The notes beneath the pieces were generated by a model, which was not told the origin of the DNA, ran no database searches, and saw only the letters and a list, made by a program, of their open reading frames with translations. This document shows positions 4,835-53,095 of a stretch of DNA of 64,000 nucleotides, piece by piece. Each line of letters opens with the position of its first letter. Within the stretch, counting starts at the first letter, position 1. This DNA is from Escherichia coli (GTDB taxonomy: Bacteria > Pseudomonadota > Gammaproteobacteria > Enterobacterales > Enterobacteriaceae): NCBI RefSeq assembly GCF_003018255.1, contig NZ_CP027440.1; one strand, given 5' to 3'. Both the position numbers and the translations under genes were made by a program.

Positions 4835-5512
4835 ATGAAGTGGGACTGGATTTTCTTTGATGCCGATGAAACGCTGTTTACCTTTGACTCATTCACCGGC
4901 TTGCAGCGGATGTTTCTTGATTACAGCGTCACCTTTACCGCTGAAGATTTTCAGGACTATCAGGCCGTTAACAAGCCACTGTGGGTGGATTATCAAAACG
5001 GCGCGATCACTTCATTACAGCTTCAGCACGGGCGGTTTGAGAGCTGGGCCGAACGGCTGAACGTCGAGCCGGGTAAACTCAACGAAGCCTTTATTAATGC
5101 GATGGCGGAAATCTGTACGCCACTGCCGGGCGCGGTTTCTCTGCTTAACGCCATTCGTGGCAACGCTAAAATTGGCATCATCACCAACGGCTTTAGCGCC
5201 TTGCAGCAAGTGCGTCTGGAACGCACGGGCCTGCGTGATTATTTCGATTTGCTGGTGATTTCCGAAGAAGTTGGCGTTGCCAAACCGAATAAGAAAATTT
5301 TCGATTATGCGCTGGAACAGGCAGGCAATCCTGACCGTTCACGTGTGCTGATGGTTGGCGACACAGCTGAGTCCGATATTCTCGGTGGCATCAACGCCGG
5401 GCTTGCGACCTGCTGGCTGAATGCGCACAATCGCGAGCAACCAGAAGGCATCGCGCCCACCTGGACCGTTTCTTCGTTGCACGAACTGGAGCAGCTCCTG
5501 TGTAAACACTGA
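4835..5512 (+). CDS. yjjG: HAD-family pyrimidine 5'-nucleotidase YjjG
   Basis: 225-aa ORF starting with the HAD motif I (FFDADETL). Confidence 0.88.
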
Positions 5513-8600: not shown

Positions 8601-9674
8601 GTGGGGCAGCGAATACCTGTAACGCTTGGTAATATTGCGCCGTTGTCGCTAAGGCCGTTCCAGCCTGGACGAATAGCTCTGGTGTGCGAAGGCGGCGGAC
8701 AGCGTGGAATTTTCACGGCTGGCGTGCTGGATGAGTTTATGCGCGCGCAGTTTAATCCTTTCGATCTTTATCTCGGCACATCTGCCGGGGCGCAGAACCT
8801 CTCGGCGTATATCTGCAATCAGCCCGGTTACGCGCGCAAAGTCATCATGCGCTATACCACAAAACGCGAATTTTTCGATCCATTGCGCTTTGTCCGTGGA
8901 GGAAATCTTATCGATCTCGACTGGCTGGTGGAGGCCACTGCAAGCCAGATGCCGTTGCAAATGGATACCGCCGCGCGGTTGTTTGACAGCGGCAAATCGT
9001 TTTATATGTGCGCCTGTCGTCAGGATGACTATGCGCCGAATTACTTTTTACCAACCAAACAAAACTGGCTGGATGTGATTCGCGCCTCCAGTGCGATACC
9101 TGGCTTTTATCGTAGCGGAGTGTCGCTGGAAGGCATTAACTACCTGGATGGCGGGATCAGTGATGCGATTCCGGTTAAAGAGGCGGCAAGGCAGGGAGCA
9201 AAAACCTTGGTCGTCATCCGCACCGTGCCGTCGCAAATGTACTACACGCCGCAGTGGTTCAAACGCATGGAACGCTGGCTGGGTGACAGTAGCCTGCAGC
9301 CGCTGGTCAATCTGGTGCAGCATCATGAAACCAGCTATCGTGACATTCAGCAATTTATTGAGAAACCACCGGGCCAGCTGCGGATATTCGAAATTTATCC
9401 GCCGAAGCCGTTGCATAGTATCGCGCTTGGCAGTCGGATTCCGGCGCTGCGTGAAGACTATAAACTTGGGCGTTTATGCGGTCGTTATTTTCTGGCAACG
9501 GTCGGTAAGTTATTGACTGAAAAAGCGCCGCTTACCCGCCATCTGGTGCCGGTGGTGACGCCGGAATCGATTGTCATTCCGCCTGCGCCAGTCGCCAACG
9601 ATACGCTGGTTGCCGAAGTGATCGACGCTCCGCAGGCGAACGACCCGACATTTAACAATGAGGATCTGGCTTGA
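8601..9674 (+). CDS. yjjU: Patatin-like phospholipase family protein YjjU
   Basis: 357-aa product from GTG 8601; patatin motifs GGGQRG and GTSAG. Confidence 0.8.
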   Translation: MGQRIPVTLGNIAPLSLRPFQPGRIALVCEGGGQRGIFTAGVLDEFMRAQFNPFDLYLGTSAGAQNLSAYICNQPGYARKVIMRYTTKREFFDPLRFVRGGNLIDLDWLVEATASQMPLQMDTAARLFDSGKSFYMCACRQDDYAPNYFLPTKQNWLDVIRASSAIPGFYRSGVSLEGINYLDGGISDAIPVKEAARQGAKTLVVIRTVPSQMYYTPQWFKRMERWLGDSSLQPLVNLVQHHETSYRDIQQFIEKPPGQLRIFEIYPPKPLHSIALGSRIPALREDYKLGRLCGRYFLATVGKLLTEKAPLTRHLVPVVTPESIVIPPAPVANDTLVAEVIDAPQANDPTFNNEDLA

Positions 9675-10450
9675 TTTGCCGTTTTATCGACACCCACTGC
9701 CATTTTGATTTCCCGCCTTTTAGTGGTGATGAAGAGGCCAGCCTGCAACGCGCGGCACAAGCGGGCGTAGGCAAGATCATTGTTCCGGCGACAGAGGCGG
9801 AAAATTTTGCCCGCGTGCAGGCGTTAGCGGAAAAATATCAACCGCTGTATGCCGCATTGGGCTTGCATCCTGGTATGTTGAAAAAACATAGCGATGTGTC
9901 TCTTGATCAGCTACAGCAGGCGCTGGAAAGGCGTCCGGCGAAGGTGGTGGCGGTGGGGGAGATCGGTCTGGATCTCTTCGGCGACGATCCGCAATTTGAG
10001 AGGCAGCAGTGGTTACTCGACGAACAACTGAAACTGGCGAAACGCTACGATCTGCCGGTGATCCTGCATTCACGGCGCACACACGACAAACTGGCGATGC
10101 ATCTTAAACGCCACGATTTGCCACGCACTGGCGTGGTTCACGGTTTTTCCGGCAGCCTGCAACAGGCCGAAAGGTTTGTACTGCTGGGCTACAAAATCGG
10201 CGTAGGCGGTACTATCACCTATCCACGCGCCAGTAAAACCCGCGATGTCATCGCAAAATTACCGCTGGCATCGTTGTTGCTGGAAACCGACGCGCCGGAT
10301 ATGCCGCTCAACGGCTTTCAGGGGCAGCCTAACCGCCCGGAACAGGCTGCGCGGGTGTTTGACGTACTTTGCGAGTTACGCCCGGAACCAGAAGATGAGA
10401 TTGCCGAAGTGTTGCTAAATAATACGTATACGTTGTTTAACGTGCCGTAG
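9671..10450 (+). CDS. yjjV: TatD-family metal-dependent hydrolase/DNase YjjV
   Basis: 259-aa ORF; N-terminal DTHCH metal-binding motif typical of the TatD family; start overlaps yjjU stop. Confidence 0.85.
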   Translation: MICRFIDTHCHFDFPPFSGDEEASLQRAAQAGVGKIIVPATEAENFARVQALAEKYQPLYAALGLHPGMLKKHSDVSLDQLQQALERRPAKVVAVGEIGLDLFGDDPQFERQQWLLDEQLKLAKRYDLPVILHSRRTHDKLAMHLKRHDLPRTGVVHGFSGSLQQAERFVLLGYKIGVGGTITYPRASKTRDVIAKLPLASLLLETDAPDMPLNGFQGQPNRPEQAARVFDVLCELRPEPEDEIAEVLLNNTYTLFNVP

Positions 10451-10670
10451 GCCGGATAAGGCGTTCACGCCGCATCCGGCAGTTGGCGCACAATGCCTGA
10501 TGCGACGCTTGACGCGTCTTATCATGCCTACAAGTCTGTGCCGAACCGTAGGCCGGATAAGGCGTTCACGCCGCATCCGGCAGCTGGCGCACAATGCCTG
10601 ATGCGACGCTTGACGCATCTTATCATGCCTACAGGTCTGTGCCGATCCGTAGGCCGTATCCGGCATGTCA
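10448..10670. repeat. BIME/REP-type intergenic repeat: about 101-bp unit in two tandem copies plus a partial third
   Basis: Unit taggccggataaggcgttcacgccgcatccggcag...gtctgtgccgaaccg recurs at about 10448 and 10549, with a partial copy at about 10649; contains the REP palindrome gccggataaggcgttcacgccgcatccggc. Confidence 0.75.
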
Positions 10671-11531
10671 CAAATATAGCGCCGGAAATATTAACCGGCT
10701 CACCCCGCGCTCCCATAACGCATCAGCCAGTTGTTCCACATCCTCCGGCGTGGCGCTCGGCCAGCTTTGCGCCTCGCCATACACGCCGTGGGCATGAAAC
10801 GCGTTCAGGCGTACCGGAACATCGCCAAGTCCCTTGATTAACGCCGCCAGTTCTTCGATGTGTTGCAAATAATCCACCTGGCCAGGGATTACCAGCAAAC
10901 GCAGTTCCGCCAGCTTACCGCGCTCTGCCAGCAAACAGATGCTGCGCTTGATCTGCTGATTATCGCGTCCGGTTAATTGCTGATGACATTCGCTCCCCCA
11001 CGCTTTGAGATCGAGCATTGCGCCGTCGCACACCGGAAGCAATTTTTCCCAGCCGGTTTCGCTCAACATGCCATTACTGTCCACCAGACAGGTGAGGTGG
11101 CGCAGTTGCGGATCGTTTTTGATAGCAGTAAACAGCGCCACCACAAACGGTAGCTGGGTCGTGGCTTCGCCGCCGCTTACCGTTATCCCTTCGATAAACA
11201 GCACTGCTTTGCGGATATGGCTAAGCACCTCATCCACGCTCATGGACTGCGCCATTGGCGTGGCATGTTGCGGACACATCTTCAGGCAGGTATCACATTG
11301 CTCGCAGACCACAGCGTTCCACACCACTTTGCCGTCGACAATCTGCAACGCCTGATGCGGACACTGCGGCACGCACTCTCCGCAATCATTACAGCGCCCC
11401 ATCGTCCACGGATTGTGACAGTTTTTGCAGCGCAGATTGCAGCCCTGCAAAAACAGAGCCAGACGACTGCCTGGCCCGTCAACGCAGGAGAAGGGGATAA
11501 TCTTACTGACTAAAGCGCATCTGCTGTTCAT
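10668..11531 (-). CDS. yjjW: Glycyl-radical enzyme activating protein (radical SAM, with ferredoxin-like Cys clusters) YjjW
   Basis: 287-aa ORF; several CxxCxxC-type cysteine clusters; co-directional with and overlapping yjjI. Confidence 0.85.
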
Positions 11532-13053
11532 GGCTTATCACGCGCGGCTGGCGTTCCAGAATACGAGTGTTGCGTGCGGCTTCTTCTCCCAGCCAGGTGG
11601 TGTTGGTGCGTGAACCTTCGGCGCGATATTTTTCTAAATCCGACAAACGCACCATATAACCGGTAACGCGAACCAGATCGTTACCGCTGACATTGGCGGT
11701 AAATTCACGCATTCCGGCTTTAAAGGCACCGAGGCAAAGCTGTACCAGCGCCTGCGGATTACGTTTGATGGTTTCGTCGAGCGTCAGAATGTCGCTGATG
11801 CCGGAATAATAATAAGCATGATGCGGGGCGACAGTTTGCAGATGGGTAATCGGATCTGGCTCATCACCATACGGCAAGCGTGCGCCAGGCGTGGTGCCGA
11901 TATCGGAACTGATCCCCGACTGTGCGTGTAGCATGGCGCGTTTTTGCCAGCCATATTTCACGGGGGTATTGGCGACAAACTCCGCCAGTTGTGCGCTGAT
12001 GCGATAACCCACTTCATTTGCGGCGGCTTCTTTACCGTAGCGCGCGGCAATCCCTTCTTTCTCACACAGCAAGTTAACTGCTTCCGCCAATCCGTACATG
12101 CCAAACATTGGCACAAAACGTTCAGGGTTAATCAGCCCTTCTTTCACCAGGAAGCTATTCTCAAAGAAGTGTGATTGTTGATAGAGGAATTCACACCGCG
12201 CATCGATGATGGCGATCTGCTGCTGGCAGTAGTGCGGTAGAGTGCGTGTAAAGAAGTCATCCAGCGATTCACTGCGCTCGGCAATGGCTTTCAGGTTAAG
12301 GCGTACCAGCGTGCTGCCACCACCCGCCAGCGGCAGTGAGTTGTAACAGCTCACAATCCCGTAGCCCCCTTTTGTGAAAATTTTATCATGCACCGGACCG
12401 TTGGCGATGTGCGGTTTGCTACATTCACAGAGGTTCTTCGCCACTTCCAGCAGTAGGTCATCAGGGGTGATTTCAGGATCGTAGATAAAGGTCAGGTTCG
12501 GTGAAACCTGCTTCAACTCTGCGTCTGCACGTAAGATCGCGCGGGTAATGGGCGAATCAGACGGGCCGATATTGGCGTGCATAAAGGCGTCTGGCAGGGT
12601 TCTGTCGAGGTAACGCCAGAAACGTTTTATTCGAATATCGATCTCGTCTTGTGTTAGAATTCTAACATACGGTTGCAACAACGCATCCAGTTGCCCCAGG
12701 TAGACCGGCATCGATGTGACCGATGGTACGTGGTGGTAAAGAATGGTCAGCAGAGAGAGTGCATCATCAAGATCTTTCGCGCCTTCCAGCTCCAGCCATT
12801 CGGAACCGTTCGCCAGAAAACGGGCGTAATCGGGTAAGACATAGCGCGGTTTGTACGGCGCATGACCTTCAAACATATCGCAGATTACACCTTCATCCAG
12901 CGCGCGGCGGGCTTCGGCAGGAAGCTGTGGGTAAGGCAGATTGTTTTCTGCTTCCAGTGCCAGAAAATGGCGCTTCTGCTCCGGGCTAAGTACCGGGCTG
13001 GTGACAATTTGCTGGCAACGTTGTTGCAGTGCATTTTCATGAGAAGTGGGCAT
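11503..13053 (-). CDS. yjjI: Uncharacterised glycyl-radical-enzyme-like protein YjjI
   Basis: 516-aa ORF at the expected position upstream of deoC; family assignment from memory of the E. coli yjjI-yjjW pair. Confidence 0.8.
12373..12388. promoter_or_regulatory. Candidate DeoR operator OE (imperfect palindrome)
   Basis: tgtgaaaattttatca lies 279 bp upstream of the O1 palindrome, matching the known deo operator spacing. Confidence 0.4.
12652..12667. promoter_or_regulatory. DeoR operator O1 (deo P1), embedded in the yjjI coding sequence
   Basis: Perfect 16-bp palindrome tgttagaattctaaca; 599 bp upstream of the second palindrome. Confidence 0.7.
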
Positions 13054-28570: not shown

Positions 28571-29177
<607 letters not shown>

Positions 29178-37257: not shown

Positions 37258-37326
<69 letters not shown>

Positions 37327-37337
37327 CGCGTACAGGA

Positions 37338-37380
37338 AACACAGAAAAAAGCCCGCACCTGACAGTGCGGGCTTTTTTTT
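37338..37380 (+). terminator. thr attenuator (leader terminator)
   Basis: aaaagcccgcacctgacagtgcgggc hairpin followed by tttttttt, between thrL and thrA. Confidence 0.85.
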
Positions 37381-37406
37381 CGACCAAAGGTAACGAGGTA
37401 ACAACC

Positions 37407-51035: not shown

Positions 51036-51123
51036 TCGCCCTATAAACGGGTAATTATACTGACACGGGCGAAGGGGAATTTCCTCTCCGCCCGTGCATT
51101 CATCTAGGGGCAATTTAAAAAAG
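51036..51123 (+). ncRNA. tpke11: Possible tpke11 small RNA (dnaK-dnaJ intergenic region)
   Basis: Positional analogy only: K-12 annotates a small RNA filling the dnaK-dnaJ spacer; region contains a hairpin cgggcgaaggggaatttcctctccgcccg. Confidence 0.3.
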
Positions 51124-52357: not shown

Positions 52358-52510
52358 TTACTCGGATTCGTAAGCCGTGAAAACAGCAACCTCCGTCTGG
52401 CCAGTTCGGATGTGAACCTCACAGAGGTCTTTTCTCGTTACCAGCGCCGCCACTACGGCGGTGATACAGATGACGATCAGGGCGACAATCATCGCCTTAG
52501 GCTGCTTCAT
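52358..52510 (-). CDS. hokC: Type I toxin HokC (Gef), Hok/Gef family membrane toxin
   Basis: 50-aa ORF MKQPKAMIVALIVICITAVVAALVTRKDLCEVHIRTGQTEVAVFTAYESE. Confidence 0.85.
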   Translation of the reverse strand: MKQPKAMIVALIVICITAVVAALVTRKDLCEVHIRTGQTEVAVFTAYESE

Positions 52511-52567
52511 TGCTCTCTTCTCCTTGACCTTACGGTCAGTAAGAGGCACTCTACATGTGTTCTGCAT
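52358..52567 (-). CDS. mokC: Overlapping regulatory ORF MokC (same frame as hokC, N-terminally extended)
   Basis: 69-codon in-frame extension upstream of hokC, as in hok/mok/sok loci. Confidence 0.6.
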   Translation of the reverse strand: MQNTCRVPLTDRKVKEKRAMKQPKAMIVALIVICITAVVAALVTRKDLCEVHIRTGQTEVAVFTAYESE

Positions 52568-52613
52568 ATAGGGGGCCTCGGGTTGATAGTAAAATATCAC
52601 TCGGGGCTTTTCT
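52559..52613 (+). ncRNA. sokC: Possible SokC antisense RNA (antitoxin of hokC)
   Basis: Positional inference from the K-12 arrangement, where sokC overlaps the mokC start in antisense; no independent sequence signal checked. Confidence 0.3.
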
Positions 52614-53095
52614 CTATCTGCCGTTCAGCTAATGCCTGAGACAGACAGCCTCAAGCACCCGCCGCTATTATATCGCTCTCTTTAACCCATTCTGTTTTAT
52701 CGATTCTAATCCTGAAGACGCCTCGCATTTTTATGGCGTAATTTTTTAATGATTTAATTATTTAACTTTAATTTATCTCTTCATCGCAATTATTGACGAC
52801 AAACTGGATTATTTTTGAAGTATTGGCCTAACAAACATCGCCGACTGACAACAAATTAATTATTACTTTTCCTAATTAATCCCTCAGAAATCCTGACCTT
52901 AAGCTATGATTATCAGGGCTTAGGGTCACACGTCAGCGCTTACAGCCGTCAAAAACTCATCTCATCACTGATGACGCAAATCCTTCAATGCCTCGTAAAA
53001 AGCGAATTATTCCTACACTATAATCTGATTTTAACGATGATTCGTGCGGGGTAAGATAGTAAAAACGATCTATTCACCTGAAAGAGAAATAAAAA

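Follow-up and report, generated by a model that had tools for sequence, protein, structure and literature searches.

The spacer between yjjV and yjjW in this Escherichia coli genome is very probably filled by a BIME-2 array, in which 101-bp units, each formed by a Y REP and an inverted Z2 REP, follow one another head to tail as a 3'-end element of two convergent genes; the same locus is the VNTR ms32. The array lies in the window, by which we mean the whole 64,000-nt stretch of contig NZ_CP027440.1 (RefSeq assembly GCF_003018255.1) that was analysed, and it occupies the entire 217-bp spacer of the convergent pair (Table 1). It is extragenic, running between the yjjV and yjjW stop codons with the TAG of its first GTAG as the sole overlap. 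A preliminary description, made from the letters alone, had given its span as 10448–10670, from one stop codon to the other, and this is exact according to the ORF ends (10450 and 10668) and the stop positions. The feature is a textbook BIME-2 array and a known VNTR, and as such it is already known. REP and BIME-2 arrays have been in the literature since about 1990, and the K-12 record NC_000913.3 has no REP features annotated at the yjjV–yjjW locus.

Table 1. Genes, repeat elements and primer sites at the yjjV–yjjW locus, with positions in the window
Feature	Position	Strand	Evidence and remarks
yjjV CDS	9671..10450	+	TatD-family metal-dependent hydrolase; ORF list; NCBIfam NF008522, 572 bits
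ms32 forward primer site	10396..10415	+	Exact match; primer from Table 1 of PMC8215070
BIME-2 unit 1, 101 bp	10445..10545	+	Tandem Repeats Finder; Rfam naRNA4, 76.6 bits at 10450-10528
Y REP, unit 1	10447..10480	+	Exact pattern match; fold; aligns with naRNA4 hairpin 1
yjjV stop codon TAG	10448-10450	+	Inside the repeat unit; is the TAG of the REP GTAG tetranucleotide
S-type Y–Z2 linker, unit 1, AGTTGGCGCACAAT, 14 nt	10481..10494		Sequence reading; linker region of the Rfam alignment
Z2 REP, unit 1, inverted, ends CTAC on the + strand	10495..10531	-	1-mismatch pattern match; naRNA4 hairpin 2; fold
Outer linker from CTAC to the next GTAG, AAGTCTGTGCCGAACC, 16 nt	10532..10547		Apparently private to the locus
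BIME-2 unit 2, 101 bp	10546..10646	+	4 substitutions relative to unit 1, one weakening the Z2 stem; naRNA4, 70.9 bits at 10551-10629
Y REP, unit 2	10548..10581	+	Exact pattern match; fold
Y–Z2 linker, unit 2, 14 nt	10582-10595		Sequence reading
Z2 REP, unit 2, inverted	10596..10632	-	2-mismatch pattern match; fold
Remnant Y REP, GTAGGCCG-TA-TCCGGC	10649..10664	+	Repeat search; comparison with L004; fold
yjjW CDS	10668..11531	-	Glycyl-radical enzyme activase; ORF list; NCBIfam TIGR04041 and TIGR04040
yjjW stop codon	10668-10670	-	3 nt away from the remnant Y REP
ms32 reverse primer site	10833..10852	-	1 mismatch; primer from Table 1 of PMC8215070
yjjI, partner gene of yjjW	11503-13053		Upstream of yjjW

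Tandem Repeats Finder delimited the array at 10445–10656, with a period of 101, 2.1 copies, 96% matches, no indels and a score of 396. An independent repeat search placed the two copies end to end at 10445–10545 and 10546–10646, differing by 4 substitutions (96% identical), followed by a third head at 10647–10664 (18 nt, 83% identity). The initial claim that a unit of about 101 bp is present twice in direct tandem is thereby borne out. The repeat pattern does not arise by chance, since the Y REP (35 nt) and the Z2 REP (38 nt) each had no match in 100 shuffles of the window. Among tandem repeats scoring at least 80 in the 64-kb window there were two, this array and a tRNA-Leu array. The latter, at 2336–2658 on the - strand, comprises three tandem tRNA-Leu(CAG) genes with a 121-bp period and is consistent with the leuQPV operon.

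Beyond the array, one lone Y-like REP was detected at 28613–28647 on the - strand, with 3 mismatches to the array Y REP; at that stringency the window held no other copy. At the scale of whole genomes, a 521-bp query that includes the array matched a median of at least 30 places per genome, as expected of a REP sequence that is highly repeated genome-wide.

Short reads can mis-assemble tandem repeats of about 100 bp, and a collapsed or expanded repeat was named from the outset as something that might undo the duplication. The probability that the duplication is such an assembly artefact is, in our judgement, practically nil. Three complete assemblies made independently contain the 521-bp stretch at 100% identity and a fourth has it at 99.8%, which excludes an artefact, and the four positions at which the two copies differ make collapse or expansion unlikely. 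The sampled complete genomes moreover carry discrete alleles of 0–5 units, and PCR-based ms32 typing yields the same size ladder.

Read along the + strand, each unit consists of CC, a Y REP, the 14-nt linker AGTTGGCGCACAAT, an inverted Z2 REP and the 16-nt linker AAGTCTGTGCCGAACC, after which the next GTAG begins. The Y REP is GTAG followed by a 30-nt imperfect palindrome, and the Z2 REP is a 33-nt palindrome followed by CTAC. Pattern matches give the strand order across the array as Y(+), Z2(-), Y(+), Z2(-) and a Y remnant(+). The unit had been described as one REP with about 65 bp of flanking sequence, which is incorrect: according to the pattern matches and the Rfam alignment, it contains two REPs, Y and inverted Z2, with linkers of 14 nt and 16 nt. 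By reading of the sequence, the last codon and stop of yjjV (CCG TAG, 10445–10450) fall within unit 1, and every unit contains TGCC|TGAT and TGCC|TACA, the motifs at which TnpA-REP cleaves. In both units the base of the Z2 stem carries a G-to-T change (CATGCC vs the consensus CAGGCC), and the Z2 of unit 2 has a further G-to-A change (GCGTCT to GCATCT).

The partial third REP head reported earlier is present on the + strand, and comparison with another genome specifies what it is. The 0-unit allele L004 carries an intact Y REP, GTAGGCCGGACAAGGCGTTTACGCCACATCCGGCATGTCAC, at the position of the remnant, so the third head is a Y REP from which the inner stem-loop has been deleted. The 3' half of the L004 REP matches the remnant REP of the array alleles, which suggests that the remnant may derive from an L004-like REP by deletion of the hairpin core. 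At 314–346 of L004 (NZ_AP022159.1), the yjjV–yjjW spacer measures 33 bp in all and is mostly one intact Y REP.

BIME-2 elements are defined by z2 and y REPs in inverse orientation, a short S linker, multiple tandem copies and a strain-variable copy number (Ton-Hoang 2012, PMC3333891; Chiapello 2005, PMC1187871), and copies within one locus are well conserved (Ton-Hoang 2012, PMC3333891). Each of these sequence-level features was found here, with alternating Y and Z2 REPs, a 14-nt S linker, a tandem arrangement and variation between strains. The elements are also REPs in the general sense, each being an imperfect palindrome of 30–40 nt with a GTAG/CTAC foot that is repeated genome-wide and sits at an extragenic site. 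The composite REP/BIME reading proposed at the start was thus substantiated as BIME-2 by the Y and Z2 pattern matches together with a full-length Rfam alignment.

Another class, BIME-1, combines Y and Z1 REPs with a long L linker, often with an IHF site, in single copy (PMC3333891). The preliminary description had raised IHF sites among the functions of such arrays, and the frequent presence of an IHF site in the L linkers of BIME-1 elements (PMC3333891) would give this a basis if the array were a BIME-1 or RIB-type element acting as an IHF binding site. We regard this as extremely improbable. The second REP is Z2 and not Z1, the linker has 14 nt and is not the long L motif, and the array is tandem whereas BIME-1 is single-copy. 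The IHF consensus WATCAANNNNTTR had no match in 10448–10670; three matches occurred in the window, all elsewhere and no more than expected by chance. The IHF suggestion therefore fails, IHF belonging to BIME-1 and its consensus being absent from the array.

Both units align over their full length with the Rfam model RF02564 (naRNA4), scoring 76.6 and 70.9 bits on the + strand against a gathering cutoff of 59.5; the - strand of the same units scored 54.2 and 48.2 bits, below the cutoff. naRNA4 is the Y and Z2 hairpin pair of REP325 (Qian 2015, PMC4550694), which in K-12 has a period of 100 and 5.8 copies, and whose units reach 95–111 bits with this model. These scores, together with an orientation to yjjV that equals that of naRNA4 to its upstream gene yjdM and with the condensation role proposed by Qian 2015 (PMC4550694), could be read to mean that the array encodes small RNAs of the naRNA4 kind, which would act in trans by binding HU and condensing the nucleoid. 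This is very unlikely. The model is in effect generic: in K-12 (L012) it also exceeds the gathering cutoff at 5250–5330, in a phnE–phnD BIME-2 unit (69 bits, well short of true REP325 units), and because this unrelated unit matches too, an RF02564 hit denotes a generic BIME-2 unit and not a nucleoid RNA gene. Our scan found no promoter-like site within or adjoining the array, and natural 0-unit alleles exist. In the same line of research, moreover, deletion or overexpression of REP325 leaves nucleoid volume unchanged, and REP–REP contacts are not enriched (Harris et al. 2026 preprint, 10.64898/2026.03.23.713779).

Intragenic sigma-54 binding motifs have been reported in K-12 yjjV and yjjW (PMC4591121), and both are kept in the window, at 10265–10281 (+, 1 mismatch) and 11446–11462 (-, 0 mismatches). 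The yjjV motif, some 165 nt upstream, points towards the array and, if active, might send transcription across the repeats in a naRNA4-like orientation. Other RNA features of the window are Rfam matches above the gathering cutoff to the sok antitoxin RNA of a hok/sok-type locus (52508–52660, -) and to the tpke11 sRNA (51046–51123, +), and a Thr operon leader (37262–37381, +).

Returning to the BIME-2 array itself, we folded its elements separately and together. As isolated elements, the Y hairpins have energies of about -21 kcal/mol whichever strand is folded, and the Z2 hairpins have -9 to -15 kcal/mol. The Z2 hairpins are weaker owing to the G-to-T change at the stem base of both units and the additional G-to-A change in unit 2, whose Z2 hairpin has -8.9 kcal/mol on the + strand and -13.4 on the - strand, with about -15 kcal/mol for unit 1. 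The remnant Y REP keeps a 4-bp mini-hairpin of about -6 kcal/mol. A Y+Z2 unit is predicted to be slightly more stable as a single long hairpin (-40 kcal/mol) than as two hairpins (about -36 kcal/mol), and whole-region folds gave z-scores of -5.3 and -7.2 relative to shuffled sequences. In the minimum free energy folds of the whole array, unit 1 pairs with unit 2 in one giant hairpin, which we take to follow thermodynamically from the inverted REPs and not to be a likely co-transcriptional structure. A search for intrinsic terminators, defined as a G+C-rich hairpin followed by a T-run, found none on the two strands of the spacer; its one hit lay within yjjV, at 10239–10257.

Open reading frames called mechanically across the array (62–114 aa) include 10415–10666 (-), 10493–10837 (+), 10528–10716 (-) and 10594–10797 (+), and they might be taken to indicate a small protein. 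We rejected them as coding, and the chance that the region encodes a protein is negligible. These frames consist of REP sequence, and the unit length of 101 is not divisible by 3, so that the frame shifts with each unit gained or lost while alleles of 0–5 units are common. The NCBI annotation pipeline, for its part, makes no gene call here in any of the records examined.

Copy number was determined across strains with a repeat-free spacer query that fuses the final 297 nt of yjjV with the final 300 nt of yjjW; the span between the two matched halves gives the array length. This query matched 5423 of 5426 complete E. coli genomes, from which 59 were taken in even steps down the match ranking of the 5426. 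The sampled genomes ranged from 0 to 5 units, with 0 units in 2 genomes, 1 in 13, 2 in 12, 3 in 6, 4 in 7 and 5 in 19, in agreement with the suggestion that copy number at this locus varies between strains. K-12 and BL21 have 4 units (4.1 copies in K-12 by Tandem Repeats Finder), and the sampled O157:H7 genomes have 2. The examined alleles differ by whole 101-bp units in register; the 5-unit allele L010, for example, looks like the 3-unit allele L009 with two more units in its interior. The units sort into recognisable sub-types that recombine.

A 41-nt query over the unit junction, with places counted genome-wide, had matches in 3687 of 5426 genomes, at 1–6 places in each (median 2). K-12 derivatives gave 2 places, corresponding to two such junctions in the K-12 array. 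The small number of places per genome is consistent with a 16-nt linker private to this locus. Among 100 044 species representatives, the junction occurred only in Escherichia sp. E1V33 and MOD1-EC7003, in both cases at the same locus. The E. coli representative genome gave no match to the unit-junction pattern in that scan, presumably through a variant junction or an allele with zero or few units.

Because healthy lineages range from a lone REP (L004, 33-bp spacer) to five or more units, individual units are probably dispensable, with a copy number close to neutral. Units would be gained and lost when the 101-bp repeats recombine or slip in register. The TnpA-REP protein (RAYT) may assist: its cleavage motifs are known (TGCC|TGAT and TGCC|TACA; PMC3333891), and their presence in each unit makes RAYT-mediated amplification possible.

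The ms32 primers flank exactly this array, whose polymorphism is therefore established and already exploited for typing. The predicted amplicon on the present allele brackets the array and measures 457 bp, and the ms32 tandem repeat has a size of 101 bp (Table 2 of PMC8215070, citing Gorge et al. 2008). In an E. coli/Shigella MLVA panel, ms32 amplicons span 355–810 bp and alleles 1–5.5 repeats (PMC8215070), a size range that fits 1 to 5.5 units given that two units yield 457 bp here. The primers do not map elsewhere, and the alignment of the second hairpin as Z2 held as well. According to the citation of Gorge et al. 2008 in PMC8215070, ms32 has been in typing use since 2008. The value of the present analysis is modest and consists in part in linking the ms32 VNTR to the BIME-2 array between yjjV and yjjW.

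The yjjV stop codon is where the array meets a coding sequence, and this junction is itself polymorphic. In the present allele yjjV ends in AAC GTG CCG TAG, and K-12 and two other Escherichia species share the REP-supplied stop. The corresponding protein ends in ..N V P(or S)* at 259 aa in the window, K-12 and the same two species. In other lineages (L005 and L007–L011, at about 300–330), yjjV ends in AAC GTT CGT GGG TAG, giving ..N V R G* and 260 aa, and the stop is followed by TTTGCCCT and then by a Y REP that is intact or internally deleted. We attribute this polymorphism of the YjjV C-terminus to the REP array.

The distance from stop codon to hairpin varies along with it. In the window and K-12 the distance is 0 nt, the first REP stem (-21 kcal/mol) starting at 10451, the base right after the stop; in O104:H4 (L008) it is 14 nt, followed by an intact REP; and in O157:H7, L005, L009, L010 and L011 the proximal hairpin is missing, the first Y REP being internally deleted. 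REPs no more than 15 nt from a stop codon have been associated with ribosome stalling and lower translation (Liang, Rudd and Deutscher 2015, in the account given in PMC12306157), and on the strength of that account YjjV output is predicted to depend on the allele.

It is possible, although we lean against it, that the main effect of the array is translational, with the REP hairpin right after the yjjV stop causing ribosome stalling, mRNA cleavage and trans-translation and thereby reducing YjjV. The placement of the stop TAG within the REP GTAG, the strong stem directly behind it and the natural variation in spacing (0 nt, 14 nt or no proximal hairpin) all point in this direction, and the junction conforms to the 15-nt rule as cited in PMC12306157. 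Such an effect would nevertheless complement a role at the 3' ends and not replace it, as it involves the first REP only and leaves the tandem array unexplained.

For the array as a whole, the most likely role, by analogy with other REP arrays, is a two-way 3'-end function for yjjV and yjjW. The REP hairpins would form the 3' ends of both converging transcripts, since the spacer holds nothing else. Acting in both directions, they may serve as partial, non-intrinsic and partly Rho-dependent attenuators of transcription and as barriers to 3' exonucleases. REP325 has been assigned a dual role as terminator and stabiliser, convergent gene pairs with a REP show higher expression, and about 40% of the REPs in convergent pairs coincide with mapped bidirectional terminators (Harris et al. 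2026, 10.64898/2026.03.23.713779). The same study detected no influence of terminal REPs on mRNA half-lives across the genome, so the effect at yjjV–yjjW could be small or absent. BIME-2 elements are also targets of DNA gyrase, which binds and cleaves them (Espeli and Boccard 1997, as cited in PMC4550694), and by family analogy the array DNA could be a site of gyrase binding and cleavage.

A bolder reading, which we consider unlikely, is that the ms32 polymorphism is not neutral and that unit number and stop-codon junction together form a heritable, strain-specific dial of YjjV output and of the insulation between yjjV and yjjW–yjjI. If true, YjjV level would be set through REP-induced ribosome stalling, and the mutual insulation of the converging yjjV and yjjW–yjjI (glycyl-radical enzyme) transcripts would be set as well. 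Apart from this reading, the naturally occurring alleles, with 0–5 units and three types of junction at the stop codon, offer a ready set on which the current model of REP arrays as regulators acting in both directions from the 3' UTR could be examined.

Compared with known systems, the yjjV–yjjW array agrees with the BIME-2 family (Gilson/Bachellier; Ton-Hoang 2012) in its alternating Y and Z2 REPs, short linker, tandem arrangement, position between convergent genes and strain-variable number, and also in having nearly identical units and locus-specific linkers. Its differences from the family are minor: a REP GTAG supplies the yjjV stop, and the terminal Y REP is internally deleted. REP325 with naRNA1-6, between yjdM and yjdN (Qian 2015; Harris 2026 preprint), shares the Y+Z2 unit, a similar period (100 vs 101 bp), the RF02564 match and the orientation to the upstream gene. 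The genes on either side of REP325 nevertheless stand in tandem within one operon, and K-12 carries 6 of its units, whereas the ms32 array lies between convergent genes and therefore provides the 3' UTR on both strands. The linkers also differ, REP325 having an S linker resembling GTCGGCACCGT and a 17-nt outer linker, GGAGGGTGCGGGAATTT, and its Rfam scores are higher (95–111 bits vs about 70–80 bits for the ms32 array). With REPINs and RAYT-associated REP doublets (Bertels and Rainey; Nunvar 2010) the array has in common an inverted pair that can be folded as one long hairpin and the presence of TnpA-REP motifs; its in-register changes of whole units, however, are equally explained by homologous recombination or slippage. 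With ms32 (Gorge et al. 2008; primers in PMC8215070) the correspondence is one of identity, in locus, 101-bp repeat and allele range alike. Gorge et al. 2008 itself apart, the later typing papers examined give only the primers, repeat size and allele sizes of ms32, with neither a BIME-2 label nor the flanking genes.
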